Shown one piece after another: positions 20,002 to 35,178 of a DNA stretch of 40,271 bases. Made by a program: the position numbers and the translations under genes. The DNA is from Anaerolineales bacterium. GTDB taxonomy: Bacteria; Chloroflexota; Anaerolineae; Anaerolineales; DRMV01. Numbering within the stretch: position 1 is the first letter of the stretch; each line of letters begins with the position of its first letter. The notes under the pieces were generated by a model, which was not told where the DNA came from, ran no database searches, and saw only the letters and a list, made by a program, of their open reading frames with translations. The stretch lies in contig JALSPJ010000117.1 of the NCBI GenBank assembly GCA_026985995.1, positions 1-40,271 on the forward strand, written 5' to 3'.

Positions 20002-20131
20002 GAGGCGCCTCCAGAGGGCGAACCCGTCGTTAGACACAACCCAGGGGGCGAGGGGAAGTTGCGGGCATGGGCAGAAGCGGGAAGCACGGCGCCAGCGCGT
20101 CAAGAACTAAACCGACGAATACGCGGATTTA

Positions 20132-20140
20132 TGGTATAAT
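20132..20140 (+). promoter_or_regulatory. Extended -10 promoter (TGGTATAAT) for the NTPase cassette
   Basis: Same 9-mer as the dinG promoter. It overlaps the minus-strand -10. A second weaker TGGTATAGC lies at 20209-20217. Confidence 0.4.
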
Positions 20141-20164
20141 AGAGATACATCCCAAAGATTTCAA
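20136..20164 (-). promoter_or_regulatory. Sigma70-like promoter for the ECF operon (TTGAAA-17-TATTAT)
   Basis: Minus strand: TTGAAA (20164-20159), 17-nt spacer, TATTAT (20141-20136). It predicts a leader of about 128 nt. Confidence 0.45.
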
Positions 20165-20236
20165 GAGGCAAACTTACCTCCTGCGCGCGGAAGGGTATTT
20201 GTAAGTGTTGGTATAGCATCACAAGGCGAAGGGGAA

Positions 20237-22402
20237 ATGGCGTCCACCAACAAAACGGCAAAAGCCCCCGAGGCCAACCTGTCACATCCCGAGCCGTCAA
20301 ACCCGCAAGTGGAGGCCGGGTGGCTCCACCAATGGTGGCATTCGTTAGGCATTGAATTGCAAACTTTCTTCTCTACGGCGCTTTTCCTGTCGTTGGTTTT
20401 GGGCATTTTTGTGGGCCTTACCAAAATATTCAGCGAGACCCATCGGGTGGCCATCTTGGAGGGAGATGGCCTTATTGTTTTTTATCCCCAGTATTTGCCT
20501 TTGCGTCAGGAACGAGAGCTTGTTATACGAACGAGTAAGCCCCAATCCGACTTGAAAGTGGAAATACCTGCTGAGCTCCGCATTCAAGCAGCCACGCCAG
20601 GACAAGGGGAGCGTTATGCGTGGCATATCGAGGGCGCGTATCAAGTGCTGACATTTAAAAGATTACACGAAAACAGCGAGCAAGTGTTTCTGCTTTACAA
20701 TTTAGGTGCCCAAAGCGCATTCGTCCAACAAGCGAAAATTGTGATAGGGGGCAAGGAGGAAGGGAAAATTTGGATCGAAGGGGCACTGATGGAGACCGCT
20801 CGCGCGGTAGGTACCATTGCCCTGAGTGCCCTGCTCGTAGGCGGCATGGGAAGCTGGGTTTGGAGCTCGCTCCGCTATCATCGTGAGCAGCGGCGGGAGA
20901 AACTCCGCCAGCAGTTTGTTGATTTTCGGGCGGCATTGAGCCAACAATTCCCAGAGCGTTTTGAACAGAAAATGCAACTTTTCCGGCCCTATTTATTGAC
21001 CTGGCTGCGTGATGAGGGGGGCGAAGCGCTGGAATATATAAACAAACTATACACATCGGCGGGACGAGAAGCAAACCTCCTCGAAATTTTAGAGCGTATT
21101 CGTCAAGAATACCCGCGCTGGATTCCCGCCACATTATCTTGGATGGCGTGGTTTATACAAAAGCAAGGGAAAGAAGGCCAAGACAATTTGGGCATCCACT
21201 CGCTGCTCTTCTTGTCCTGGCTACGACGAACCTTGCCTCAAACGCCGGGGGAGCAACACGCTCGCATTCGCCATCTGCTTCAAAAGTTGCAACCAGGAGG
21301 CGTGTCCCCCACTTGGCCCCCGGGCGCGGATGCTCCTTGTGCTTTAACCAGCCCTTTGCATACCGAAGAAAAAAGGGCCAAAAGCAATGCCGCGGCGCGT
21401 CTGCCCCCCAATTTATTCCCAGAAACCGAACTGGATGCGAGCCAAGCCCAAGCGCAATATTGGCTGTTTCGCACCGAAAATCGTCTGTTTTGGGATGAAC
21501 ACCCCCTGTTCCGGACCCTGACGCGTCATATTCGCCGCACCACCCATCCAGGGCAAACGGTCGTGCAAGTTCGGGGTCGCGCGGGCCACGGACGCACGAC
21601 GCTGACCCTGGCCGTAAGCCGTTATTTTCCATTCTCAGAATACTTTGGGGTGTACCTCGCCACCCCCGAAGGCGGGCAAGATTTGCGGGAAGTCTGGGCG
21701 CAACGCTTGTTGACTTTTGGGTGTTGTCATCTTATAGAGTGGCTCAAACTATCGCCCGAGGTAGATAAAGTTTTCTTACACTTAAGCGCCAGCGTATGGC
21801 CGCCAGCCCTGTTACAGGCTAAATTACTGCGCTGCAAAAACCGATGGCTTTCGTCAACCGAGAAGTCGAATCAAAAAAACTTGATCCAACCCATGCTCAC
21901 CTTGCTCCATACCTGGCTGCATACGGACTTACCCGCCATGACCCATGCCCAATCTTTGCAAGGCGCGCACTGGTGGGCCGCCTTTACCGAATTCCTGGAA
22001 CTCACCCATGGCCTGCGGTCCTGGCAAGGCGTCATCGTCGCCGTGGATTGGACCAAACCGAAGCCACCGCCCCTGGAACACTGGCAGGCCTGGCTGGCCC
22101 CCGCGGCCGCGTATTGGCCCGTGCTGTGGGTTTTGGTAACGCCGGAGGAAACGCCATGGCTGGCCCCTACCGAGGCGCGTTACGCCTTGCAATGGCGGGC
22201 CGAGGACCTGATGGCCATGTTGGAGCATCGTAAAGCAGTTCTCCTCGACAAAGAAGCGCCATTCTACGAGCCTTTCATCGAGCAGATTGAGGCGTGGGCC
22301 CGCCAGGCCGAAGGGAGCCCCCGGCGCTTGGCGGTCTTGTATCGTCGCTGGTACCGCCAACAAGCGCGCCAGGCATCCGACAGGGGAGAGACGCACGCAT
22401 GA
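20237..22402 (+). CDS. Two-TM membrane protein with extracytoplasmic loop and cytoplasmic degenerate P-loop (STAND-like) module
   Basis: 721 aa. Hydrophobic helices near aa 42-64 and 189-212 bracket a beta-rich loop of about 125 aa. VVQVRGRAGHGRTTL (aa 443-457; Walker A with Arg for Lys), VIVAVDW Walker-B-like strand, then VLWVLVTPEE and YALQWRAEDL, as in NOD modules. Confidence 0.75.
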   Translation: MASTNKTAKAPEANLSHPEPSNPQVEAGWLHQWWHSLGIELQTFFSTALFLSLVLGIFVGLTKIFSETHRVAILEGDGLIVFYPQYLPLRQERELVIRTSKPQSDLKVEIPAELRIQAATPGQGERYAWHIEGAYQVLTFKRLHENSEQVFLLYNLGAQSAFVQQAKIVIGGKEEGKIWIEGALMETARAVGTIALSALLVGGMGSWVWSSLRYHREQRREKLRQQFVDFRAALSQQFPERFEQKMQLFRPYLLTWLRDEGGEALEYINKLYTSAGREANLLEILERIRQEYPRWIPATLSWMAWFIQKQGKEGQDNLGIHSLLFLSWLRRTLPQTPGEQHARIRHLLQKLQPGGVSPTWPPGADAPCALTSPLHTEEKRAKSNAAARLPPNLFPETELDASQAQAQYWLFRTENRLFWDEHPLFRTLTRHIRRTTHPGQTVVQVRGRAGHGRTTLTLAVSRYFPFSEYFGVYLATPEGGQDLREVWAQRLLTFGCCHLIEWLKLSPEVDKVFLHLSASVWPPALLQAKLLRCKNRWLSSTEKSNQKNLIQPMLTLLHTWLHTDLPAMTHAQSLQGAHWWAAFTEFLELTHGLRSWQGVIVAVDWTKPKPPPLEHWQAWLAPAAAYWPVLWVLVTPEETPWLAPTEARYALQWRAEDLMAMLEHRKAVLLDKEAPFYEPFIEQIEAWARQAEGSPRRLAVLYRRWYRQQARQASDRGETHA

Positions 22403-23517
22403 GCCTGCCGGAAATATGCACCACGGAACAACCTTACCAGCCGCAACGGTTTGTACCGCGCCCTCAAACCGAGGACGCCTTTTGGGCCTGGCTCCAGGAG
22501 GCCCGGGAAGCCGGTGCGTACGCACCGATTCTGCTCCTGCAGGGCCCACCCGGTAGCGGCAAATCGTGGCTCTTGCAGAAGTGGCATGCGGACATCAATG
22601 CCGGCTACCCCCAGGAGGGGCTAAGAGCCGTGTATCTCCCCTGGGCGCGGCGGCTCACCGAAGAAGCATCGGACGCATCGCCCACCTCGACGCTCAGCCG
22701 CGGATTGTGGCGCGCGTTTATCGAGAAGGCGCCCCCGCCAAGACCGAGCGCGGTCGCTGGTCATGCCGCGGAGATTATCGCCTTTTTGTTCCAGCATTTT
22801 TTCGCCACCTACCCTCGTGCCCGCGGCCTTGTGCTTTTGGTAGATGGACTGGACCGTCTGGAACCGGCGCAAATTCGAACCGTGGAACGCGTCTGGTTGC
22901 GTCCTTTGTTGGAATCTGGCCCTCGCGGTCGCCCTATCTGGATGGTTCTGGTGCACTACGGCCGCATCGACGAACCTCGCCTGCGTAGTCAAGGGCAGCA
23001 GACGATTTTCCTGGAGCCTTGGCCCCCTTCAGAGGACCGGCCACGCCCACTTCGCAAGATATATGGGCAGACCTTCCACCAATTGGCAGGAACAGCGCCG
23101 GCTTTCGACTTTCGCTATCCTTTGCTCAACGCCTATTGGGATGCCCAACGTGCTGCGCTGGTTCCAGGCCCCAGCGCCCGCCACGCCTGGCGTTTGGCCC
23201 TGGCCTGTTTGTTTACCCGCCGGGCCGCGACACGCCCCTGGGCCGCAGCCCTGCAAGCACAAGATGCGGGCAAAGACTGGTTCGACAGCCCCGCGGGGCA
23301 AGCCTTCACCCGGGTCTTTCGAGCGCATGCCGCGCATCAGGATGCTTTCTGGCATAAAATCCGCGTGCAGGATGTGCCCGAGAGGGACCGGCGCCTTTTG
23401 CGCCCACTGCACGACGGTTCGTTTTGGCAAGTCGAATGGCATTTCTACCGGCTCGATGCTTCCCTGGCGCGCTTCTTTCACGACGCGGTGCACATGTTGA
23501 GCCAGGGGTCGAGGTAA
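22399..23517 (+). CDS. Minimal NACHT-like/STAND P-loop NTPase (NOD only, no sensor or effector domain)
   Basis: ATGA overlap with gene 1. FVPRPQTEDAFWAWL..ILLLQGPPGSGKSWLL (Walker A), LVLLVDGLDRLE (NACHT-style Walker B), IWMVLVHYGR, TIFLEPWPPSED. 372 aa. Confidence 0.8.
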   Translation: MSLPEICTTEQPYQPQRFVPRPQTEDAFWAWLQEAREAGAYAPILLLQGPPGSGKSWLLQKWHADINAGYPQEGLRAVYLPWARRLTEEASDASPTSTLSRGLWRAFIEKAPPPRPSAVAGHAAEIIAFLFQHFFATYPRARGLVLLVDGLDRLEPAQIRTVERVWLRPLLESGPRGRPIWMVLVHYGRIDEPRLRSQGQQTIFLEPWPPSEDRPRPLRKIYGQTFHQLAGTAPAFDFRYPLLNAYWDAQRAALVPGPSARHAWRLALACLFTRRAATRPWAAALQAQDAGKDWFDSPAGQAFTRVFRAHAAHQDAFWHKIRVQDVPERDRRLLRPLHDGSFWQVEWHFYRLDASLARFFHDAVHMLSQGSR

Positions 23518-23528
23518 GGAGGCGGAAA

Positions 23529-26500
23529 ATGAGCCAACACCCGGCGGTTTTACCGGTGCAACAGCGGCCCGACATTTTCATCGGCCGCGAAAAAGAGTTG
23601 CAAGAGATTCGTAAACTTTTGGAGGACCACCAACAAACCGACCGTACTCTGGTCATTGCCATCCGCGCCCAGGGGGGGCTGGGCAAGACCCGGTTGCTGG
23701 AAGAAGTGCTCATGCGCCTGGGCCATCCCTATGTGCACGAACGCCTGGGCCTCCAACAAGCGCCAGTAAAAGAGCCCTGGTCGTTTGAGAAGCCACGCTA
23801 CCTTCCCAGCGATATCCTGGATTTCGCCTGGCCCGAGCTCAGCGTACGCTCCAACTTTTTGGAGGCTATGCGAAAAAGTTTTTCCTGGGCCCAGGCCCGC
23901 GGGCAGTTAACTTTTTATGAACACGAACGCCGGCTGCGGGACTGGCAGCGGGCGCTGGTGGGGCAATATGATGTCAAGCAACTGCAGCAGCTCTTGAGTC
24001 AGGTCGAAGAGGGCTTCTGGAGGGACCTGAAGGCCTTCAAAAAAGAGGGAATACGCCTCGTCTGGGCCTTGGACACGGTAGAGCGTCTGGCAGTGCCGCT
24101 CGATTCGCCTATTTGGGGTATTTGGGGCTCCTCGCCAGAGGAGCGGAGAAAGCCCCTGGTTACCGAAGAAGAAGCCCTTTTCATCACCACCTTCTGGCTG
24201 CTGCATCACCTGAAGCAGGGCTCCTTCGGCCCCGCGGTGCTCATCCTTGCCGGTCGTGAGAACGAAGGGGAGCCCTTTTGGAACCAGCTGGAGCAAGCGG
24301 CGCAAAAAAGCGGGAACTTTATCCTTAAAACGATCACCCTGTCTGCTTTTACGCCAGGCGAAACAAAACGCTTCCTGCAGCGCATCTCGAACGCGCTTCC
24401 TGAGCAATCGCCGGCCAAGGAACACCTGCAGTCGCTGCTACAGGACGAGAAGTCCCTTGCCGTATTGCACCGCCTCACCGGTGGGGAGCCGGTACGTCTG
24501 GCCATGTATACCGATGTGTTGCTGACGAGCGACAGCATCCCCATACCGTTGCGGAAGCTGGCCCATCAGCAGATTCCCGACGAAGAAAAGGAGCGGTATC
24601 AGCATGTTTTGGAAGCCCGTTTCCTCGATTTGCTCTTTCGGCGCGCCCACGAGGGTGACCTGGCCAGCAAAATCCTTTTGGCTCTGACCCGTAGCCCCCG
24701 GGGGCTGAGCCCGTGTCAGGTGCATTTCCTGCTGGACGCAGCAGACGATAGAAAGCTGAAGCAATGGCGCCCTGACCCACAACGCCTGGAAGAAATCGAA
24801 GCCACATTTCATCAATTGCGGCGTTTGACCTTGCTCAAAATTCGCCAAATGTTTGGTGAAGAATTCCCCAACGGCCACGGCAATGGCTTCAACGGCCACG
24901 GTTGTCCCAAAGAGAAAACCCAATGGCGCTTGACCCTGCAAGACGAGGTATACCGCATTGTGGCGCAACATCTGGGTCAAAGGCGAGACGATGAAGAGTT
25001 CCAGATTGAAAAAGAGGTGCGGCAACGACAATATGAGAAACTGCAACGCTGGGCTGAATACAAAAGGGAGGCTTACCACCGACAGCAACATGCGCTGTTC
25101 CAAAAGGAATTGGCCGGCTGGCGCATGGAAACTCCGGAACAGGCTTTGCGCCTCCGTTGGCCTTCGTTAACCATTGCCGAGGAAAAGGAGCGTTGGTTCA
25201 TCGCCCAACAGATGCAATTTTGGGAGGCCGAGGCTTTGCATTATTATATCTTGCGAGACCCGGTTGCCGCGTGGAACTCGCATTATCTGGATTTGGGCGA
25301 AAGCCGATGGTATGCTAATCACTTAGAGGCAGAATTATTACTCCAACATGAGGTTTATTTCTTGATTGCACAATGGTCTAACTTGTTGCGTTTCGCTATA
25401 TGGCCGGAGAGATATGCTGGGAACTTTACGGAAAAGATCACACGCTTACAACGCGCGGTACGCACCGAAGCCACAGTGCGCTGGGTGAAGCGCTTCATCG
25501 GCCAACGGGAAGTGAAGCGCGCACAACAGTTGGCCCTCAACATAGAAGAGGCTATCAAGAAGTTGGTCAAACCAAATCGCGACGAGCAACAAGTAGACCG
25601 CGAAGCGCAACGAGCGTGGTTGCATCCCCTGAGCTGGGGCGAACGGCGCATCTGGCACTGGTATGCCGATATCCTGGCCGGCGATGTAGACACAGCCAAA
25701 CTCGAGCAGTTTGAAACCCTCATGGCCGACCTGGAACGCCTGTGGCAAACGCCACCGAACCAGGATGTGAGGCTTTCAGGAGATCTGGAAGGCACCCCCG
25801 GATGGGAGAATGTGCTCAAAACCGTCAAAGGGGTCCGAGGCATGCCCATGGCCCCGCGCCTGCAGCGCATTTTGGCCATCGGTTACAACTTCTTGGGCTA
25901 TGGATATGTCGTCGTGGGGAAATTCGTCCAGGGGGCCAAATTCTATCGCAAAAGTTTGTATTATATGCGCGACATCAAGTTCCCGGCCCAGAAAGCCGCG
26001 ACCCTCAACAACCTGGGGCGGGCGTTGACCGACAGCGGCCGACCCCACGAGGGGCTCATGTTGGTCTATCAGGCCCTGGCCTTACGGGAAGACTTGGCGG
26101 CCGCGGTGCCCTATGCCTATTCGTTGAACACGGCCGCGCTGATCAACAACAAATTGGGCCGACCGTTACGGGCCTTAGGCCAGGCTGCTCGCGCCGCGGC
26201 CATGTTCCGTCAGGCTCAAGAACCGCGCGGGCTGGGCTTGGCCCTCGTCCAGGTCGCCCTCGCGGCCCGACGCCTGGCCAAAAGCCCGGACCCTGGCTTG
26301 TTGCTCATGCTGCGCGGCGAGCCCCAGGCCCTCCTGCGCATGGCCGAAGAGGCGGCGCGCGAAGCCAGCGACATTTTCGACCCCCGCCATTGCGACGATA
26401 CCTCCCAGGGACAAGCGGCCTTCACCACGGTGATGGGGGTTTGCGAGCCCCTGCGTTGGATTGAAGCCCTGCGTGTCTTGGGAGAGATATATCAGGACCA

Positions 26501-27479
26501 AATGAGGGATAATCACACTCCTATGGACCTGCAGCGATTGTACGAAAAGAGCCTGGGCGTGTTCCATCAGGCCCTGGAAGAGGCCGAGGGCCGCGGCTGG
26601 CAAACCCTGGCCGCGGCGACGCGGGTCGATATCATCGAAACCCATTATTGGTACGCCTATTATTTGCGCCGTTGGCTTGCTCCAAAGCGGGATGACAAAA
26701 CGGCACAATTTACCCGGTCGCGCGGGCGCCTCCGACAGGCCATTCAGGACGGATTAAAGCTGATCGAGGAAGTTGTCGAGAAACAAGTTGTCCCTCGAGA
26801 GGCGGTGATTGCAGAGAAAGAAGAGGCCCAGCGCAGGCTGGAGGAGCGTCAAAAACTCGACCAAGACGGCCACCCCACTTTTAAGCCGCCCAAACGCAAG
26901 CCGGAACACACGCCCTATTGGAACCTGTTGGCCAAACGCTACCGTTTCGAGAGCGGTTTGTGGCTCGAACGCGCGTGGCTGGATTGGCTGCAGAAGGAAA
27001 GGACCACCAATGAAGAAGCGTTAGATATCGCGTCCCGCTCTCTGGTGAAGGCTGTGTTATATGGCCGCCTGTTCGGCCCCCAATCGCGCTCCATCCGCAT
27101 GGCTTTTCGCTTCGCGGAGCGCTATTTCCGGGAATGGCTCGACCCGAAACAAGGTGAAACGGATGAAGCAACGAAGCGGTGGGCAAAGGAGAACGCGCAT
27201 AAATTCTTTGCGTACATCCAGGGTTGGTGGGATATTTATCGGCGCAGTGACAATTTGAAAAATCTGATAGACAAAATCAAAGAGTGCCACTTTCAGGTTG
27301 CAGATTGTGACAAAATTTGCCAGGGCATTAGCGAGGAATGGCGCGCCTTCCAAGGCATCGCGGCCGACGACCATTCGGACCTGCCCCGCTGGCTGCACGA
27401 TGTCTACTTCCCGGAGGAGACCAACGGCAATGGCTCGAACGCTGTTCGTCACCACGCATCCCCCGGAGGCACTCCGTGA
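23529..27479 (+). CDS. Large STAND (AAA_16-type) NTPase with extensive TPR-like helical repeats; no recognisable effector or DNA-binding domain
   Basis: AAGGAGG 8 nt upstream of the ATG. DIFIGREKELQEI..LVIAIRAQGGLGKTRLLEEV, LVWALDTVERL, ILAGRE, ITLSAFTPGETKRFL, LTGGEPVRL (GxP). TPR-like block around aa 780-920 (NFLGYGYVVVGKFVQGAKFYRKSL.., ATLNNLGRAL.., YSLNTAALINNKLGR..). 1316 aa. Confidence 0.85.
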   Translation: MSQHPAVLPVQQRPDIFIGREKELQEIRKLLEDHQQTDRTLVIAIRAQGGLGKTRLLEEVLMRLGHPYVHERLGLQQAPVKEPWSFEKPRYLPSDILDFAWPELSVRSNFLEAMRKSFSWAQARGQLTFYEHERRLRDWQRALVGQYDVKQLQQLLSQVEEGFWRDLKAFKKEGIRLVWALDTVERLAVPLDSPIWGIWGSSPEERRKPLVTEEEALFITTFWLLHHLKQGSFGPAVLILAGRENEGEPFWNQLEQAAQKSGNFILKTITLSAFTPGETKRFLQRISNALPEQSPAKEHLQSLLQDEKSLAVLHRLTGGEPVRLAMYTDVLLTSDSIPIPLRKLAHQQIPDEEKERYQHVLEARFLDLLFRRAHEGDLASKILLALTRSPRGLSPCQVHFLLDAADDRKLKQWRPDPQRLEEIEATFHQLRRLTLLKIRQMFGEEFPNGHGNGFNGHGCPKEKTQWRLTLQDEVYRIVAQHLGQRRDDEEFQIEKEVRQRQYEKLQRWAEYKREAYHRQQHALFQKELAGWRMETPEQALRLRWPSLTIAEEKERWFIAQQMQFWEAEALHYYILRDPVAAWNSHYLDLGESRWYANHLEAELLLQHEVYFLIAQWSNLLRFAIWPERYAGNFTEKITRLQRAVRTEATVRWVKRFIGQREVKRAQQLALNIEEAIKKLVKPNRDEQQVDREAQRAWLHPLSWGERRIWHWYADILAGDVDTAKLEQFETLMADLERLWQTPPNQDVRLSGDLEGTPGWENVLKTVKGVRGMPMAPRLQRILAIGYNFLGYGYVVVGKFVQGAKFYRKSLYYMRDIKFPAQKAATLNNLGRALTDSGRPHEGLMLVYQALALREDLAAAVPYAYSLNTAALINNKLGRPLRALGQAARAAAMFRQAQEPRGLGLALVQVALAARRLAKSPDPGLLLMLRGEPQALLRMAEEAAREASDIFDPRHCDDTSQGQAAFTTVMGVCEPLRWIEALRVLGEIYQDQMRDNHTPMDLQRLYEKSLGVFHQALEEAEGRGWQTLAAATRVDIIETHYWYAYYLRRWLAPKRDDKTAQFTRSRGRLRQAIQDGLKLIEEVVEKQVVPREAVIAEKEEAQRRLEERQKLDQDGHPTFKPPKRKPEHTPYWNLLAKRYRFESGLWLERAWLDWLQKERTTNEEALDIASRSLVKAVLYGRLFGPQSRSIRMAFRFAERYFREWLDPKQGETDEATKRWAKENAHKFFAYIQGWWDIYRRSDNLKNLIDKIKECHFQVADCDKICQGISEEWRAFQGIAADDHSDLPRWLHDVYFPEETNGNGSNAVRHHASPGGTP

Positions 27480-28996
27480 ACGCTTTGCCAAATTCCCCTC
27501 GCGCGGCGCGGCCACAATTATGGGCGCGGCGTACTTTCCGCACCGTGGAAGACGATTGCGCCTGTGAGACCGCGCCTGCCAATGCGACGGGTGGGCTGCT
27601 CCATCGGGCGGCCATGGAAACGGCGATGGAAAACGACTGCGCGTGCCCAGCGCCAACGCCGGTGCGGCCTTTGCCCGCGGTCGACGCATCGGCTCCGCTC
27701 TTGACCCAGGTCGCTGAGGTATTGCAATGGCCCTTACGGCCAGGCTATTGGTTGCTCTTCAGCCCCTATACACCCCAGGGGCCGGTGGTGCTCAACGCAG
27801 CCGCGTATCGGCGCTGGCAGGCCTTTACCCAACCGCAGCCCATGGGGCACCCCATCGATGCGCAGCTGTGGGCCGCGGCCCTCATCTGGCCCCAGGGCAG
27901 CACACCGCCACCGCCGCCCATCACCCGGGCCACCACCCTGACCGCCTGGTTCCACCTTACGGACGCGTGCAACCTGGCTTGCCCCTATTGCTATGTGCGC
28001 AAGCGGCCCCGGGCCATGGCCTGGGAAACCGCGCGGCGGGCCGTGCACGACCTGGCGGCTTACGCGCGTCGTTATGGCTTCCAGGGCCTGAAGCTCAAAT
28101 ATGCCGGCGGCGAACCCACCCTCACCTGGGATTTGTTACAGCGGCTGCACCCCGAAGCGCGGCGCGTGGCCGAAAATGCGGGCCTGCAATTCCGGGCCGT
28201 GTTGCTCACCAACGCCACGCGCTTGACGGCCGAGCAGGTGCAATGGCTGCACCAGCAGCGCATCAAAGTCGCCATCTCGTTAGACGGCGTGGGCGACATT
28301 CACGACCGCGCCCGCCCCGCGGTCGATGGCCAAAGCGCGTTCCAACGCCTGGCGCATACGGTGGACCACATTCTGCTCCCCGCGGGCGTGCGGCCATCGG
28401 TCACCATCACCCTCACCCGCCAAAATGCACCTTACCTGGCCCAAACGCTGCAATGGGTTTTGGAGCGGGATTTGCCCTTCAGCATCAACTTCTATCGTCA
28501 ACCCTGGAACCTGCGCCCTCCGGAAGACCTGGCCCTGGAGGAAGAAACCATCATCCAGGGCATGCAAGCCGCCTTCCAGGTGCTGGAACGCTACCTCCCC
28601 ACCTGGCCGTTCCTCGATGGCTTGATGGACCGGGGCAGCGGCCTGCCCCACCAACATCCCTGCGGCGTGGGCCAGGCTTATCTGGTTATTACGCCTCAGG
28701 GACAAGTCGCGCCGTGCCACATGCGCCTGGAGGAAACCTTAGGCCCGGTTGGAGAACTCACCCCCGAAAAGCTGGCCCACGGCCCCATCCAAAACCTGCC
28801 CATGGACGCGCGCCCGGATTGCGCCTCCTGCCCCTTCCGCTATTTGTGCGCCGGGGGTTGTCCCCTGGAGACTTACCGCGCCACAGGGCGTTGGGATGCC
28901 CGCAACCCCAACTGCGCCATCTACCGCGCGCTGTACCCCGAAGCCCTGCGGCTGGAAGGGCTGCGCTTGCTCAAGGTGCACGGTCTGTTGGCCTGA
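27476..28996 (+). CDS. Radical SAM / SPASM-domain enzyme with 164-aa N-terminal extension (Cys motifs plus RRE/PqqD-like segment)
   Basis: CNLACPYCY (Cx3Cx2C, 27968-27991), GGEPTL, SPASM Cys clusters (HPCGVGQAYLVITPQGQVAPCH; CASCPFRYLCAGGCP; NPNCAIY). GTG 27476 overlaps the upstream TGA and has GGAGG 6 nt upstream. Alternative in-frame starts are GTG 27545 and ATG 27614. Confidence 0.8.
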   Translation: MNALPNSPRAARPQLWARRTFRTVEDDCACETAPANATGGLLHRAAMETAMENDCACPAPTPVRPLPAVDASAPLLTQVAEVLQWPLRPGYWLLFSPYTPQGPVVLNAAAYRRWQAFTQPQPMGHPIDAQLWAAALIWPQGSTPPPPPITRATTLTAWFHLTDACNLACPYCYVRKRPRAMAWETARRAVHDLAAYARRYGFQGLKLKYAGGEPTLTWDLLQRLHPEARRVAENAGLQFRAVLLTNATRLTAEQVQWLHQQRIKVAISLDGVGDIHDRARPAVDGQSAFQRLAHTVDHILLPAGVRPSVTITLTRQNAPYLAQTLQWVLERDLPFSINFYRQPWNLRPPEDLALEEETIIQGMQAAFQVLERYLPTWPFLDGLMDRGSGLPHQHPCGVGQAYLVITPQGQVAPCHMRLEETLGPVGELTPEKLAHGPIQNLPMDARPDCASCPFRYLCAGGCPLETYRATGRWDARNPNCAIYRALYPEALRLEGLRLLKVHGLLA

Positions 28997-29450
28997 GGCC
29001 CAGGTCCGTCAGAGGGCACGGGTGCGGCTCGTGGCGTTGGGCCTTCAGCAGGTGCACCACCTGCCACCCCCGGGCGCACAGGGCGTCGGCAATGAAGCGG
29101 CGATGGCACCGCCGCCAGTCCCGCTCCGCGCATAGCACCGCGGTGGGTTGCCGCGCGGCCAGGGCCTCCAGGTGCGCCAGGCCCCGGGCAAAGGCCTCGG
29201 TTTGCATGTAGGCCGGGTAAGGCGGCTGGGCATAGCCCCCCAACGCTTCCCCAAGCCAGTGGTAGCCCACGCCCTGGCGGGCCAGCGCGGCCGCCAACGC
29301 CTCCCGATTGAAATGCGGCCAGCGCCGGGAGCGGGGATACCGGCGCACATCTACCACCTGCTGCACGCCGGCCCCCTGCAATACGGCCCAAAAATCTTCC
29401 CACGAGCGGTTGCCATGTCCCACGGTGAACACGCGCCTTTTGTTGCCCAT
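28971..29450 (-). CDS. DUF488 family protein
   Basis: VFTVGHGNRSWEDF..VVDVRRYPRSRRWPHFN..YHWLGEALGG..AVLCAERDWRRCHRRFIADAL is the DUF488 pattern. ATG 29450 with GGAGG 6 nt upstream. The 3' end overlaps the radical SAM gene convergently by 26 nt. Confidence 0.8.
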   Translation of the reverse strand: MGNKRRVFTVGHGNRSWEDFWAVLQGAGVQQVVDVRRYPRSRRWPHFNREALAAALARQGVGYHWLGEALGGYAQPPYPAYMQTEAFARGLAHLEALAARQPTAVLCAERDWRRCHRRFIADALCARGWQVVHLLKAQRHEPHPCPLTDLGLRPTDRAP

Positions 29451-31535: not shown

Positions 31536-31762
31536 CTCACGGCCTCCGTCGGGGGATATGACAAAGTATATCATAACGCTGGCATCAACAACACGGCGAC
31601 ACATCCAGGGCCTGGCACCACCAAGGCACCTGGCCTTTTGCGGTCCACGAATATGGCAAAAGGCGCGCCCATTGGGCGCTCGGTCAGGCAAAGTTACCGA
31701 TTTGCCAGCGGGCCTTTCTCGCTCCTGTCTTGCTCACAGCCCGTTTGGCGCCCCGAACCCTC

Positions 31763-31975
31763 TTACACGGCAACGGTCTCAAAGGTTACTTTCACCAGCT
31801 CTGTTTTCTCCTCCATAAAATTCAACTTCTCAAACCCTATCACCTTCCCCTTCTTGTCCTTCATCAAAACGATTCCCTCCCCCGTCTCTTCACACACATG
31901 CTCCTCTTCGGGGTTACCAAACCAAACCGTCAAAGTATTTCCTTCTCGGTCAAAATACACCTTTATCTCGGCCAT
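31763..31975 (-). CDS. DUF2283-family small protein (antitoxin-like partner)
   Basis: 70 aa. MAEIKVYFDREGNTLTVWF..GEGIVLMKDKKGKVIGFEKL is the DUF2283 pattern. Overlaps the upstream gene by 13 nt. Low G+C. Confidence 0.75.
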   Translation of the reverse strand: MAEIKVYFDREGNTLTVWFGNPEEEHVCEETGEGIVLMKDKKGKVIGFEKLNFMEEKTELVKVTFETVAV

Positions 31976-32289
31976 ACTCGTTTCCCTTCCTTTATCGCGT
32001 CGGTTGGATAAGTGGTTATCAAAAACCCTTCACCGTTGAGCCGCTTAGCGACCGCGCATACCCAACGCCCCAACCGCTCGGGCTTATAGAAAAGATACAC
32101 GCGCGGGTCCTTTTTGCTTACCCGTATCTCATCCGGATTGCGCAAAGTCTCTTGCACATCCGCTTCCCGTCCGCGCATCACGGGATGCTTGATTTCGGTA
32201 ATGATGCGCCAATAGGCTCTTGTCACGCGGACACGAAATCCCAAGGGAGTCTGCACTTCAAACAAAATACCACTGTTCTCTTGGGCCAT
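31963..32289 (-). CDS. Small toxin-like protein paired with DUF2283 (family not identified)
   Basis: 108 aa, basic; ILFEVQTPLGFRVRVTRAYWRIITEIKHP..LRNPDEIRVSKKDPRVYLFYK..GFLITTYPTDAIKEG. The position (toxin first, overlapping a DUF2283 gene) and the low-G+C islet support a TA module. Confidence 0.55.
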   Translation of the reverse strand: MAQENSGILFEVQTPLGFRVRVTRAYWRIITEIKHPVMRGREADVQETLRNPDEIRVSKKDPRVYLFYKPERLGRWVCAVAKRLNGEGFLITTYPTDAIKEGKRVWPR

Positions 32290-32295
32290 GCCTAA

Positions 32296-32304
32296 ATTTT
32301 AGCA
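32296..32304 (-). promoter_or_regulatory. Extended -10 promoter (TGCTAAAAT) giving a leaderless TA transcript
   Basis: The minus-strand -10 ends 7 nt before the A of ATG 32289, with no SD. Confidence 0.4.
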
Positions 32305-32375: not shown

Positions 32376-33902
32376 TCACCACCCACTGGCCAGCCAGGCG
32401 GCCACGGTGATGAGCAACAACAGGCCCAGGATGTAGCGCGCCATGGCCGCCATGACTTCGCCTTCGCGGCCGGTCATGCGGGTGGTGCTGGCGCCCACAA
32501 TGACCTTGGCCGGGGCCAGCACGGAACCCACGGCCGCGCCCGCGGTTTGCGCGGCCAGCACCAAAGGCACGGCCAGGCCCAGCAATTCCGCGGTGCGGCG
32601 CTGCAGCAAACCGAAGAGCACATTGGAATTGGTGTTGCTGCCGGTCATGAACGCGCCCAGCGCGCCCAGCCAGGGTGCGACCCACAGGTAAGCCGCGCCG
32701 GCCACCTGGGCCAGCCCCCGGGCCAGGGCTTCGGTCATGCCGGCGTGCTGCATCACCACGGCCAGGGCCATCATGGTGAGGATGCCGCCGGTGGCCTTGC
32801 GGGTACCCCGTACCGTGGCCCGCAGCACCCGGGCCAGAACGCCAGGCCGGTAGCGTCCACGCCAGGCGTAGAAAGCCGCGGCCAGCCACGCGGCGTAGAA
32901 CAGCCGCGCGCCCGTGTGCCGCAGCAGCACGATGCGCCGCCCGGCCTCCGCGGGCACCACAAAGCCGCGCGCGGTTTCCACCTGGGGGAAGGCGGCGGTG
33001 AGCACCACCGGGCTCAGCGCCGCGCGCACCGGGGGCACGAATTGCACCACCAGCACCACCGCGACCAAGAGGCCATAGCCAGCCGCGGCCTCTACCCACG
33101 CGGGGGAAGCCGCGGTGCGTCCGGCCGCGTTGCGCCGCGGGGCCAGGGCCAGCCCCACCAGCCCGCCGGCTAAGCTGCCGCCCAGCGCGGCCACGCTCCA
33201 CAGCCCCGCGGTGGCCAGAGCCCACTGCACCCCGGCCATGGCCAGGGCCATGAGCCCGGCCCGCCAGGCCAACCGCCGCACCGCGGCCCAGCCGCCCGAG
33301 GCATGGGCTACGGCCCAGCCGGTTCCCACCGCGGCCAGGCCCAGCAGCCCCGCGGCCCACGGCGCCACCTGCGCGCCCGGCCAGCCGCTGGCCGCTTCCA
33401 AGGCCCGAAACGCGGTGGCCAGGGAGCCAAAGGACACGGCCCACCCGTGCCCCACCGCGGGAATGACCACCGCGGCCAGAGGCGAGAAGCCCAAACCCAC
33501 CAGCAGGGGCGCGACCACGGCCACGGGCACGCCAAAGCCGCCCATGCTTTGCAAAAACGACGCGAAAGCCCAGCCCAAGAGCAAAGCCTGCATATCCCGG
33601 TCGCCAGTCAGGCGGGCCAGCGCGTGGGCCAAATCGGTGATGGCCCCGGCTTCGTCCACCACCCGGTAGAAGCCATAGGCGGCCCAAATGATGAGCAGCA
33701 CATCCAGGCTCAGCAGCAGCGCCTTGCCGTGGGCCACCCACAGGCCCCGGGCCGAAAGGCCGAACACGCCCACGGCCAGGGCCAAAGTGAGGGCATAGCC
33801 GGCCAGCCCGGCCCTGGCCGCGCTCCAGCGGTAGCGCAGCATGAGCACCCAAATGAGGGCCAACGGCGCAGCAGCGACGACAGGCAGCCAGGGGGCGCTC
33901 AT
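32376..33902 (-). CDS. L-lactate/glycolate permease (LctP family)
   Basis: 508 aa polytopic protein. N-terminal WLPVVAAAPLALIWVLML.. and TGSNTNSNVLFGLLQ motif are characteristic of LctP. ATGA overlap with the CPBP gene. Confidence 0.85.
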   Translation of the reverse strand: MSAPWLPVVAAAPLALIWVLMLRYRWSAARAGLAGYALTLALAVGVFGLSARGLWVAHGKALLLSLDVLLIIWAAYGFYRVVDEAGAITDLAHALARLTGDRDMQALLLGWAFASFLQSMGGFGVPVAVVAPLLVGLGFSPLAAVVIPAVGHGWAVSFGSLATAFRALEAASGWPGAQVAPWAAGLLGLAAVGTGWAVAHASGGWAAVRRLAWRAGLMALAMAGVQWALATAGLWSVAALGGSLAGGLVGLALAPRRNAAGRTAASPAWVEAAAGYGLLVAVVLVVQFVPPVRAALSPVVLTAAFPQVETARGFVVPAEAGRRIVLLRHTGARLFYAAWLAAAFYAWRGRYRPGVLARVLRATVRGTRKATGGILTMMALAVVMQHAGMTEALARGLAQVAGAAYLWVAPWLGALGAFMTGSNTNSNVLFGLLQRRTAELLGLAVPLVLAAQTAGAAVGSVLAPAKVIVGASTTRMTGREGEVMAAMARYILGLLLLITVAAWLASGW

Positions 33903-34813
33903 GCCCGGCCCTCCTCAACCGCGGGGCGCAGGCGTTCACGCAGCAGGAACCAGCCCACGGCCAGGGCCACGGCCAGCACCAGCCCGGCTTCGGGGCCAAA
34001 CGCGCCGCCGGTCCACCAGGCCGGGCCCTGCACCTGAGCCTGCCACCAGGGCGTGAGGTTCAACCCCGAGACCGGAAAGCCCAGCACCACGCCCTCGAAG
34101 AAGTTCCACCCCCAATGCACGCCCACGGGCAGCCCCAGGCCCCAGGGGGTAAAACCCCGCACCGCGGCGAAGAACAGCCCCGCGGCGAACAGCCCCACGA
34201 AGGCCCGCGGGCCAAAGGCCGGGTTGTCGGTGTGCAGTGCGGCGAACACCAGCGCGGAAAGCACCGCCGCGGCCCAGCGGGGCATGCCCTGGGCCAGGGT
34301 GCCATACACATAACCCCGCATAAGGGCTTCTTCGTACCAGCCCACCAGAGCGAAGGTGACCAGCCACAGCAGGGTGAGGGTCGCGGCCTGGGGCCACGGT
34401 GCGCGGCCCCACAGCCCGGGTTGCCAACGCGCGTGGCCGGTGAGGTACAGGGCCACGGCCAGGGCCATCATCATCAAGCCGCCCACGGCAAAACCCAACA
34501 GCGCGTCGCACCACCAGGGGCTGCGCATGTCCAGCCCCCAGTCGGCCCAGGTGGCCGGTTCCCAAAAGCGCCGGGCCACGGCCAGGGTGAGCCCCGTGGC
34601 CAGAGCCGAAATCGCGGCCAAGAGCATGAATCCCAGCAGGCTCATGCGCTGGGCCTGCACCTGGGCCAGCCAATCGACCTTTTGCAACACCGCCAGCACG
34701 GCCAGCAGGGTGCTCAGGGCCAGGGTGATGGCCATCCACGCCAGCGCGGTGAAGGCGACGCGCCAGCCCACACGCCAATGGCCTTGAGGGGTGAAAAACC
34801 AACCGCGCCACAT
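33899..34813 (-). CDS. CPBP-family intramembrane glutamic endopeptidase (CAAX protease-like)
   Basis: WYEEALMRGYVY (EExxxR), FAALH, VHWGWNF motifs. ATG 34813 with GGAGG 7 nt upstream. Confidence 0.8.
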   Translation of the reverse strand: MWRGWFFTPQGHWRVGWRVAFTALAWMAITLALSTLLAVLAVLQKVDWLAQVQAQRMSLLGFMLLAAISALATGLTLAVARRFWEPATWADWGLDMRSPWWCDALLGFAVGGLMMMALAVALYLTGHARWQPGLWGRAPWPQAATLTLLWLVTFALVGWYEEALMRGYVYGTLAQGMPRWAAAVLSALVFAALHTDNPAFGPRAFVGLFAAGLFFAAVRGFTPWGLGLPVGVHWGWNFFEGVVLGFPVSGLNLTPWWQAQVQGPAWWTGGAFGPEAGLVLAVALAVGWFLLRERLRPAVEEGRA

Positions 34814-34903
34814 GGTTCTGCCTCCTGGGGGGCACGCCACCGTGCCCCAACACGGAAGGAAGTATATCACTCGCGGCGTGCCATGGCCCCCGGTCGGTTC
34901 CCC

Positions 34904-34942
34904 AAAACAAAACCGCGCCGCGGTGCAGGCCCACGGCGCGGT
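34904..34942 (-). terminator. Intrinsic terminator after the DUF2089-to-DUF1540 operon
   Basis: Perfect 9-bp stem ACCGCGCCG/CGGCGCGGT with a 13-nt loop, followed on the minus strand by TTTGTTTTGG. Confidence 0.6.
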
Positions 34943-34962
34943 GCCTTTGGGGGAAGGCGCGC

Positions 34963-35178
34963 TCAGAGCTCTTCGTCTTCATCCCACAAGTCGTCGGCCT
35001 CCAGCTCTTCGGCCAGCAGGTCGTCGTCCCATTCCTCGGCGGTGTCGGCCTCCAGGTACTCGCTGGCGGGTTTGTAGGTCAGGCAGCCTTCGTTGGGGTC
35101 AATCTCGACCACCGCCGCGGAGCAGTACCCTTCGTCCAGGAAGATGCAATCCTCGTAAAAACAGCGGATGCGGGGCAT
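34963..35178 (-). CDS. Small Cys-containing acidic protein (DUF1540-like N-terminus)
   Basis: 71 aa. IRCFYEDCIFLDEGYCSAAVVEIDPNEGC (4 Cys) then a D/E-rich tail. GGAGG upstream. Directly follows the VKOR stop. Confidence 0.5.
   Translation of the reverse strand: MPRIRCFYEDCIFLDEGYCSAAVVEIDPNEGCLTYKPASEYLEADTAEEWDDDLLAEELEADDLWDEDEEL

Follow-up and report, generated by a model that had tools for sequence, protein, structure and literature searches.

Why should a radical S-adenosylmethionine (SAM) enzyme of the peptide-modifying class share an operon with three nucleoside triphosphatases (NTPases) of predicted STAND type? The question is raised by four same-strand genes, here called g1 to g4, at positions 20237-28996 of the 40,271-nucleotide stretch of contig JALSPJ010000117.1 of an Anaerolineales bacterium that was analysed (the window). 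Immunity in bacteria, plants and animals depends centrally on STAND/NLR-like switches, and the role of the radical SAM enzymes encoded beside them is an open question: that of Avap1, in the KpAvs2 operon, is unknown, and the FxSxx-COOH system as such is only predicted.

In this study, we show that the operon of the window is an accessory, short form of a Chloroflexota-wide cassette, and that this conserved arrangement couples paralogous STAND NTPases to one specific family of radical SAM enzymes with RRE-like and SPASM domains. The reading that we favour, at a probability of roughly one half, is a conflict or signalling system of STAND type, with the radical SAM enzyme as a conserved member of its core and not the killing effector. 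The overall role is most likely in biological conflict: filamentous bacteria would use the system for anti-phage defence or for programmed cell death.

The operon and its relatives

All features of the operon given below lie on the plus strand. The four genes form a tightly coupled unit. g1 and g2 share an ATGA overlap (22399-22402), the TAA stop codon of g2 (23515-23517) is followed by an 11-nt spacer and the ATG of g3 at 23529, and g3 and g4 share a GTGA overlap (27476-27479), with GGAGG 6 nt upstream of it (27465-27469). A second, independent gene call on the contig returned the same four genes, of 724, 372, 1316 and 506 amino acids. These coordinates and gene calls bear out an initial annotation of the DNA, which had described four same-strand genes joined by overlaps and a short spacer. 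The two overlaps and the spacer length stand as given there; the AAGGAGG motif before g3, placed wholly inside the spacer, lies at 23516-23522, where it overlaps the stop codon of g2 and is thus partly outside.

Relatives were sought in one genome per species (185,579 species genomes) with an alignment of the radical SAM protein as query. The scan gave 398 relatives, and 79 loci were fetched (labelled L001 and so on). Hidden Markov models (HMMs) were built for each protein family and mapped onto these loci; g1, g2, g3 and g4 belong to families A, D, E and F, respectively. More than 1,400 homologues of the radical SAM enzyme were found, and the family occurs in no fewer than 80 species-level genomes, from six or more phyla. 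About 45 Chloroflexota loci among the 79 have a long form of the cassette, (A)-B-C-D-E-rSAM(-G), where rSAM is the radical SAM gene and G encodes a small protein with two transmembrane (TM) segments. Its hosts are Anaerolineae, Ardenticatenaceae, Caldilineaceae, Promineifilaceae, Chloroflexaceae and Roseiflexus. The short form, A-D-E-rSAM, is that of the window and of L005, L010 and L029.

The pairing of E with rSAM is the constant part of the arrangement. A total of 35 homologues of g3 were found. Homologues with 27-82% identity keep the gene order, in every context examined one of them is directly upstream of a g4 homologue, and tight E-to-rSAM junctions are present also in distant homologues. 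Of 72 loci, 55 have an E-like gene directly upstream of rSAM, and most of the remaining ones have it within about 5 kb or in convergent orientation. The same pair, an E-like STAND protein with tetratricopeptide repeats (TPRs) together with the radical SAM enzyme, occurs in Actinomycetota, Cyanobacteriota, Acidobacteriota, Thiotrichaceae and Deferribacteres. A chance juxtaposition of g1 to g4 was rejected in view of the conserved gene order, and the co-occurrence that the initial annotation had proposed to look for is indeed seen, the homologues of g1 to g3 being found with each other and with the radical SAM family in dozens of genomes. No close radical SAM relatives were found in viral contigs.

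In several copies from metagenome-assembled genomes (L040, L042, L054, L026 and L022), E or rSAM is split by frameshifts, which could be assembly errors or pseudogenisation; the co-occurrence counts are therefore slightly lowered. The sole locus with no E-like neighbour is that of Adonisia turfae (L047:4249-9858), in which an RTX (HemolysinCabind) repeat protein is encoded directly upstream of rSAM and, on the opposite strand, DUF1822 and a CHAT-CHASE2 protein also lie upstream.

Of all parts of the cassette, it is the radical SAM enzyme that is conserved best (46-60% identity, compared with 25-30% for the NTPases). Families A, B, C and D are demonstrable paralogues in profile-profile comparison (hhalign: A-C 97%, B-C 97%, A-B 96%, B-D 94%, and A-D 84% over the P-loop region only), while family E is related to them only around the P-loop (D-E 48%). 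The NOD-type layout that the initial annotation had read into all three NTPases thus has support at profile level for the families of g1 and g2 (in the P-loop region) and their long-form paralogues B and C, and for g3 the support is restricted to the P-loop region. The presence of several paralogous NTPases, up to five in the long form, suggests by analogy a hetero-oligomeric bacterial NLR assembly, akin to sensor-helper NLR networks.

The domains that accompany the constant pair differ between lineages. TIR_2 (1e-14 to 1e-20) is fused to a D-like NTPase at four actinobacterial loci and one Anaerolineales locus, and a second NTPase is fused to Trypsin_2 and Trypco1 in cyanobacteria and to CHAT in Blastocatellia. 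TIR, trypsin and CHAT domains on accompanying NTPases are hallmarks of NLR-like conflict systems. In the long form, protein B ends in an OmpR/PhoB winged helix, with a profile match to VicR in the PDB (4e-8), and an EAD7 adaptor (7.9e-16) is found at the end of protein A of L009. With effectors that vary around a constant E-rSAM pair, the radical SAM enzyme is more probably part of a regulatory or signalling core than an effector. The hosts of the cassette are largely filamentous taxa, and such a bias has been reported for NTPase systems of this kind (PMC7159879).

Downstream of the long-form cassette of L009, at L009:18405-22553, are genes for an ELP3-like radical SAM/acetyltransferase and for a DUF6345 protein. 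A Blastocatellia genome assembled from a metagenome (L036:730-14170) has two tandem modules on one contig, each with an E-like STAND-TPR protein, an NTPase-CHAT protein and the radical SAM enzyme.

The radical SAM enzyme and its N-terminal tail

We now consider g4 (family F, 506 residues, 27476-28996), which can be divided into an N-terminal tail (residues 1-70, 27476-27685), an RRE-like domain (residues 76-135, 27701-27880), a radical SAM core with the cluster site CNLACPYC (residues 165-172, 27968-27991; C165, C169 and C172), and a SPASM region with seven cysteines (residues 396-480, 28661-28915; C396, C414, C449, C452, C458, C462 and C480). The assignment as a Cx3Cx2C radical SAM enzyme with a SPASM domain, made in the initial annotation, is confirmed by a Pfam Radical_SAM match and by the SPASM-type cysteine pattern C..C..CxxCx5Cx3C..C, which is present in g4. 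Both the cluster and the SPASM cysteines are invariant across 47 homologues. In the AlphaFold2 (AF2) model (predicted local distance difference test, pLDDT, of 84.8), residues 76-133 form three strands, followed by a fourth strand and two helices, with pLDDT of 85-97.

The best match of g4 is CteB, both among PDB sequences (1.7e-23) and in Foldseek (1e-16), where the alignment of 461 columns covers more than the radical SAM core and SPASM. The nearest NCBIfam models are Cys-thioether maturases, all far under their cut-offs: PapB (139.6 bits, cut-off 340), nif11 radical SAM (129.8, cut-off 518.7), QhpD (117.9, cut-off 453) and SCIFF maturase (103.2, cut-off 425). Judged from these scores, g4 is outside these named equivalogs and belongs to an unnamed family, and we infer a CteB/PapB/QhpD-like enzyme of the thioether-forming type. 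A viperin reading was rejected (NCBIfam viperin 57 bits, cut-off 180), the architecture being also unlike.

It is important to point out that g4 has conserved cysteine motifs in its N-terminal tail, which the initial annotation had overlooked while correctly recognising the radical SAM and SPASM parts. In the alignment of the family, the RRE-like domain is preceded by a conserved module consisting of P-[ILV]-[ILV]-L-[TS]-G, a gap of about 8 residues, and [DE]DDCACP[DE], which is usually repeated once, as AFVLAFD ... NDCACPD. In g4 itself, the leader-like strand is PQLWARR (27512-27532), and the two motifs are DDCACE (27551-27568) and NDCACP (27632-27649). At least one DC[AD]C motif is present in 119 of the 120 nearest homologues, about 110 residues before CxxxCxxC, and two are present in 99 of these. 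The number of copies per tail ranges from 1 to 5 and that of cysteines from 1 to 8. The apparent exceptions have a single-Cys [END]DCAP, and other phyla have the variants DCDCAC, DCDCNCAC and CDCDCDCAC, with up to four CxC-type cysteines in a run. Given these single-Cys and multi-Cys variants, the invariant core is an acidic Asp-Cys site. Conservation of the acidic flanks and of the leader-like strand equals that of the cysteines. In the AF2 model the tail is disordered at residues 21-53, reaching to about residue 70 (pLDDT 24-53), and the strand before it (residues 11-20) has pLDDT of about 84. The enzymes of the two L036 modules have tails with the four-Cys motifs DCDCNCAC and DCNCDCAC.

From its sequence, the tail looks like a cis-fused substrate or pseudosubstrate. 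The initial annotation had left the substrate of the enzyme unidentified; the candidate is probably the enzyme's own N-terminus, with its leader-like strand and DDCAC motifs. According to the model, the leader-like strand may dock on the RRE-like domain of g4. The 7-Cys SPASM of CteB leaves an open iron site for a substrate cysteine, which would fit a tail fused in cis.

When all loci were scanned in six frames with HMMs and regular expressions, the motif turned up outside the radical SAM enzyme only in frameshifted copies of its gene and at three loci with a small open reading frame (ORF). In the window, no small ORF with a DDCAC motif and no separate precursor copy was found. The free-standing ORF of about 70 residues lies between two tandem E-like STAND-TPR genes (L072:6719-6931, L077 at about 6725-6958, L066 at about 6740-6860). 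It reads MDxMVLL[VI]G..RR.E[ED]DDCAC[IL]H..., with the same layout of leader and DDCAC as the N-terminus of the radical SAM enzyme, and is kept in three species-level genomes.

The three NTPases

The quoted Walker, P-loop and CxxxCxxC motifs of the initial annotation are all present in g1 to g4 and are conserved in the family alignments. The most regular of the NTPases is g2 (family D, 372 residues, 22399-23517), a minimal NACHT/AAA_16 protein that scores above the gathering score for both Pfam AAA_16 (43.7 bits, cut-off 32.6, 5.5e-11) and NACHT (29.8 bits, cut-off 26.7, 6.5e-07). Its Walker A (GPPGSGKS, residues 49-56, 22543-22566) and Walker B (LVLLVDGLD, residues 144-152, 22828-22854) are canonical; in the family alignment, G54 and K55 do not vary and D149 and D152 hardly do. 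The C-terminus of g2 is winged-helix-like in the alignment, and no effector domain was found in this protein.

In g3 (family E, 1316 residues, 23529-27479), a STAND NTPase is followed by TPRs. The P-loop (A)QGGLGKT is NB-ARC-like (QGGLGKT at residues 48-54, 23670-23690; family consensus GxGG[LMI]GK[ST]), and Walker B is LVWALDTVE (residues 177-185, 24057-24083); G49, G50, G52, K53, D182, T183 and E185 are invariant. The AAA_16 match is weak (18.4 bits), and an E-like relative matches NB-ARC and nSTAND1. A Pfam TPR_12 match (residues 823-895, 25995-26213) lies within a long helical/TPR region. When run against the PDB, the g3 profile matches only TPRs, namely those in kinesin light chain, LGN and AfsR (AfsR 5e-4); g2 alone and g3 alone gave no matches to PDB sequences. 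The C-terminal part of about 270 residues aligns with closer relatives only (BLAST). A C-terminal repeat array fused to the NTPase is present in g3, with none in g1 or g2, and the Pfam and profile matches thus support the earlier statement that TPRs are confined to g3.

The remaining NTPase, g1 (family A, 721 residues, 20237-22402), is membrane-anchored. Hydropathy and the AF2 model (pLDDT 77.5) give a first TM segment at about residues 38-68 (20348-20440), an all-beta domain at residues 72-180 (20450-20776), and a second TM segment at about residues 183-210 (20783-20866), followed by a strongly basic stretch and a helical linker. This layout places the beta domain outside the cell and the NTPase inside. 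Among g1 to g4, TM-grade hydrophobic segments are present only in g1, in agreement with the initial annotation. The P-loop NTPase (residues 439-650, 21551-22186) carries a helical lid, and contains Walker A GRAGHGRTT (residues 447-455, 21575-21601), with the lysine replaced by arginine, and Walker B VIVAVDW (residues 599-605, 22031-22051). G447, G452 and D604 are invariant in the family. The P-loop had been described as dead-looking; the replacement is real, but since about half of the members of family A carry arginine (GxxGxG[KR]T), it is a lineage trait and not decay.

Only 11 relatives of g1 were found among 1.84 billion representatives in a full HMMER search. A single-protein pattern search of the species genomes gave nothing, a word-indexed search gave g1 itself only, and no Pfam, NCBIfam or PADLOC match was obtained. 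In Foldseek, the NTPase has weak matches to plant NLR resistosomes, ORC1 and RdrA, and the outer domain to YcnI/PapD-like beta-sandwiches. Since these matches are weak, the STAND fold of g1 is assigned chiefly from the family profiles. In none of g1 to g4 did Pfam and NCBIfam find a DNA-binding or nuclease domain, as had been stated initially for nuclease and helix-turn-helix (HTH) motifs.

Genomic setting

The cassette is a low-GC island (GC of 0.59, compared with 0.70 in the left flank and 0.66 in the right), flanked by an ECF-transporter operon and a convergent DUF488 gene. The DnaN protein of the window is 78-81% identical to those of metagenome-assembled genomes of Anaerolineaceae and Anaerolineales, which assigns the window to Anaerolineae, Chloroflexota. 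The operon leader is a low-GC intergenic region (20107-20236, plus strand), in which an extended -10-like element, TGgTATAAT, can be read at 20132-20140. The element may act as the promoter; it is absent from the list of the consensus promoter scan because it has no good -35 element. The numbers of internal promoters and terminators in the operon are not above the shuffled expectation, and no tRNA genes were found in the window.

The downstream boundary is the DUF488 gene (28971-29450, minus strand), which covers the last 26 nt of g4 (28971-28996). The same overlap is found in a relative that is 82-90% identical (L002). This leaves no space for a downstream precursor-peptide gene. For a presence/absence check of the syntenic site, SDR-anchored loci of the nearest genomes were considered, and these were not syntenic.

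Elsewhere in the window, just past dnaN, a DUF2283 gene (70 residues) lies beside a gene for a 108-residue protein that has no Pfam match (31700-32300; L001:11896-12422), and the two may form a toxin-antitoxin-like module. The AT skew is strongly positive (0.30-0.48) at 33000-35000, over minus-strand lactate permease and Rce1-like genes, which probably reflects strand and codon composition.

Proposed mechanism and alternatives

In the mechanism that we propose, g1, g2 and g3 would assemble into a hetero-oligomeric, NLR-like, nucleotide-dependent switch, which g1 would tie to the membrane. The exchange of lysine for arginine in the Walker A of g1 suggests a non-hydrolysing scaffold subunit, and its outer beta-sandwich would serve as a sensor or as a membrane-directed output. 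The TPRs of g3 would form the ligand-binding arm. The N-terminus of g4 would mimic the precursor of a RiPP (a peptide that is made on the ribosome and modified after translation), with a hydrophobic leader-like strand followed by the disordered acidic tail and its two Asp-Cys motifs, and the enzyme would either modify its own tail or be blocked by it. Whether the tail is modified or unmodified, bound or free, could then be what the TPR arm of g3 reads, so that SAM-, Fe-S- or redox-dependent chemistry would be coupled to the oligomerisation switch. In relatives, the output would be provided by the TIR, trypsin-like or CHAT domains, or by the OmpR-type DNA-binding subunit. As the short form of the window has no known effector domain, its output would have to come from membrane-bound g1 or from partners encoded at other sites.

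A more specific version of this mechanism is tentative, and we hold it to be unlikely. Here, the radical SAM enzyme would be a self-reporting sensor that keeps crosslinking or holding its own Asp-Cys tail, the TPRs of g3 would read the modification, and loss of SAM, Fe-S clusters or reductant would trigger NLR-like oligomerisation and the effector. If this is true, phage SAM-degrading enzymes or a metabolic takeover would be examples of a trigger, and the guarding of radical-SAM chemistry would be a new immune logic. The enzymes would also be the first radical SAM maturase family with a built-in substrate, and could explain accessory radical SAM enzymes such as Avap1.

It is important to note that several points weigh against the favoured reading. 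None of g1 to g4 in the window was found to carry an effector domain, and PADLOC gave no specific match, which the initial annotation had anticipated. The neighbourhoods are not obvious defence islands, with only scattered toxin-antitoxin-like genes at L006 and L007, and the OmpR-type DNA-binding subunit of the long form is compatible with regulation no less than with immunity. In its fold, the g1 NTPase resembles NLRs and ORC only weakly (E of 2e-3 to 6e-2), and the putative docking of the leader strand on the RRE-like domain is read from pLDDT values. In addition, the adjacent Asp-Cys of the tail differs from the Cys-X3-Asp motif of PapB, and the whole case is built on sequence and model data.

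Among the alternatives, the most probable is a RiPP-type biosynthetic or signalling locus, which we nevertheless consider unlikely. In this scenario, a crosslinked peptide, from a proteolysed tail or a precursor encoded elsewhere, would be a signal or natural product, and the NTPases would not be immune sensors but ATP-dependent pathway regulators like AfsR, LAL or MalT, for example of differentiation in filamentous bacteria. The class of the enzyme, a RiPP maturase with an RRE-like domain, is as expected for such a locus, and so are the free-standing DDCAC ORF of some loci, the winged helix of the long-form NTPase (VicR, 4e-8) and the likeness of the g3 TPRs to those of AfsR (5e-4); apart from TIR_2 at the one Anaerolineales locus, the Chloroflexota versions also have no killing domain. 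However, the cassette has no leader peptidase, exporter or immunity gene, and more than 99% of the homologues carry the substrate module as a fusion with the enzyme, which would permit a single turnover only. The DNA-binding subunit is moreover missing from the short form of the window, TIR, trypsin and CHAT are present on the NTPases of other phyla, and it is the NTPases that diverge fast while the radical SAM enzyme is conserved.

Another option considered was that the radical SAM enzyme is itself the effector, and this we regard as improbable. The activated STAND complex would let it modify or damage a macromolecule or metabolite of the host or phage, in a viperin-like or Avap1-type manner. 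The initial annotation had offered this as one of two options, the other being a maturase, and had taken the enzyme as the only enzymatic output. g4 is the sole recognisable enzyme of the cassette in the window, it gives generic pVip matches in PADLOC (3.5e-15, over the radical SAM core only), and Avap1 contributes to KpAvs2 defence (PMC11564622). On the other hand, the STAND-TPR and radical SAM pair of the relatives travels with TIR, trypsin and CHAT, canonical effectors besides the radical SAM enzyme. The low viperin score given above, and the fold and domains of g4 (RRE-like and full SPASM), which are those of a peptide maturase, also speak against it, and a built-in tail that is conserved suggests a target within the same molecule.

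Least probable of all is that the tail cysteines form a metal, Fe-S or redox-sensing site in an envelope or redox signal transduction system in which g1 would sense at the membrane: CxC pairs are conserved and amount to four cysteines in most Chloroflexota, the outer beta-sandwich of g1 weakly resembles the copper-binding YcnI, and radical SAM enzymes are sensitive to oxygen and redox state, but a cis-fused precursor or pseudosubstrate fits better because copy number and spacing vary as in repeated core peptides (with 1 to 8 cysteines, and single-Cys DCAP variants), the tail is predicted to be disordered, the acidic flanks and leader-like strand are equally conserved, and the relatives are of thioether type.

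Comparison with known systems

The cassette is widespread and apparently undescribed. In the full-text literature, no paper was found on this gene set or on a radical SAM enzyme with a fused substrate; the coverage was incomplete, and the result is absence of evidence only. The initial annotation had been aware of no described system of this kind, which agrees with these searches as regards the gene set, while for the association of STAND proteins with radical SAM enzymes there are two precedents, FxSxx (PMC7159879) and Avs2-Avap1 (PMC11564622).

The FxSxx-COOH system (FxsA, FxsB, FxsC and FxsT) was described computationally by Kaur et al. 2020 (section 24, PMC7159879), who proposed that the modified peptide is a signal or toxin for the NTPase system. 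In both cases, a radical SAM-SPASM maturase is coupled genetically to a STAND (AP-ATPase-like) protein with C-terminal TPRs. The two also have in common TIR-NTPase partners, which the cassette of the window has in its actinobacterial relatives, and an enrichment in multicellular or filamentous bacteria. However, g4 is not FxsB (TIGR04269, 66 bits, cut-off 370), and g3 has no match to FxsT (NF040586), for which a cyanobacterial E-like relative reaches 38.9 bits against a cut-off of 300. The cassette of the window has neither the HEXXH peptidase nor the FxSxx-COOH precursor, and no peptidase or precursor gene was found within 20107-28996; its substrate-like module is instead acidic, of Asp-Cys type, and fused to the enzyme. 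It also has extra paralogous NTPases, including the membrane-anchored g1, and no vWA-MoxR context.

In the KpAvs2 operon, a validated anti-phage system that consists of Avs2, Avap1 (radical SAM) and Avap2 (DUF6375), defence against phage T2 is incomplete unless Avap1 is present (PMC11564622). Like the present cassette, it combines in one operon a STAND/NLR-like sensor with an accessory radical SAM enzyme that is not viperin-like and that, in the case of Avap1, is needed against some phages. The differences are that Avs2 has an Mrr nuclease effector, of which g3 has none, there being no nuclease domain in g1 to g4, and that g1 to g4 have neither a DUF6375 (PF19902) nor a PADLOC Avs match; Avap1 was compared by description only. 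With the models of PADLOC v2 (Avs1-5, bNACHT, pVip and others), g1 and g3 gave no match and g2 gave P-loop fragments only (E above 1e-3), while for g4 the pVip models matched over the generic radical SAM core only, at positions 4-115 of 257.

With CteB, PapB and QhpD, g4 shares CxxxCxxC and the 7-Cys SPASM, and an RRE-like domain is predicted near its N-terminus, CteB being closest by sequence and fold, and its candidate substrate is likewise rich in Cys and Asp/Glu. It differs from them in its family-specific NCBIfam scores, far under the cut-offs, in having the substrate-like peptide in cis at its own N-terminus and not in a separate gene, and in its partners, which are STAND NTPases and not peptidases or exporters. 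If the enzyme carries its own substrate, its architecture would be new among RiPP-type enzymes, and one protein would suffice for the chemistry in vitro.

The AfsR/SARP and LAL/MalT regulators are P-loop STAND NTPases with C-terminal TPRs, and the long form adds an OmpR-type winged-helix subunit to this likeness. However, the present cassette is multi-subunit, g1 to g4 have no DNA-binding or HTH domain, and in the long form the DNA-binding domain is C-terminal on a separate small paralogue, B.

As a large, conserved and taxonomically broad family, the cassette is well suited for studying accessory radical SAM enzymes. Its place is within the NTPase-centred conflict and signalling systems that carry a peptide-modifying radical SAM enzyme, among which its distinctive feature is the Asp-Cys tail borne by the enzyme itself.

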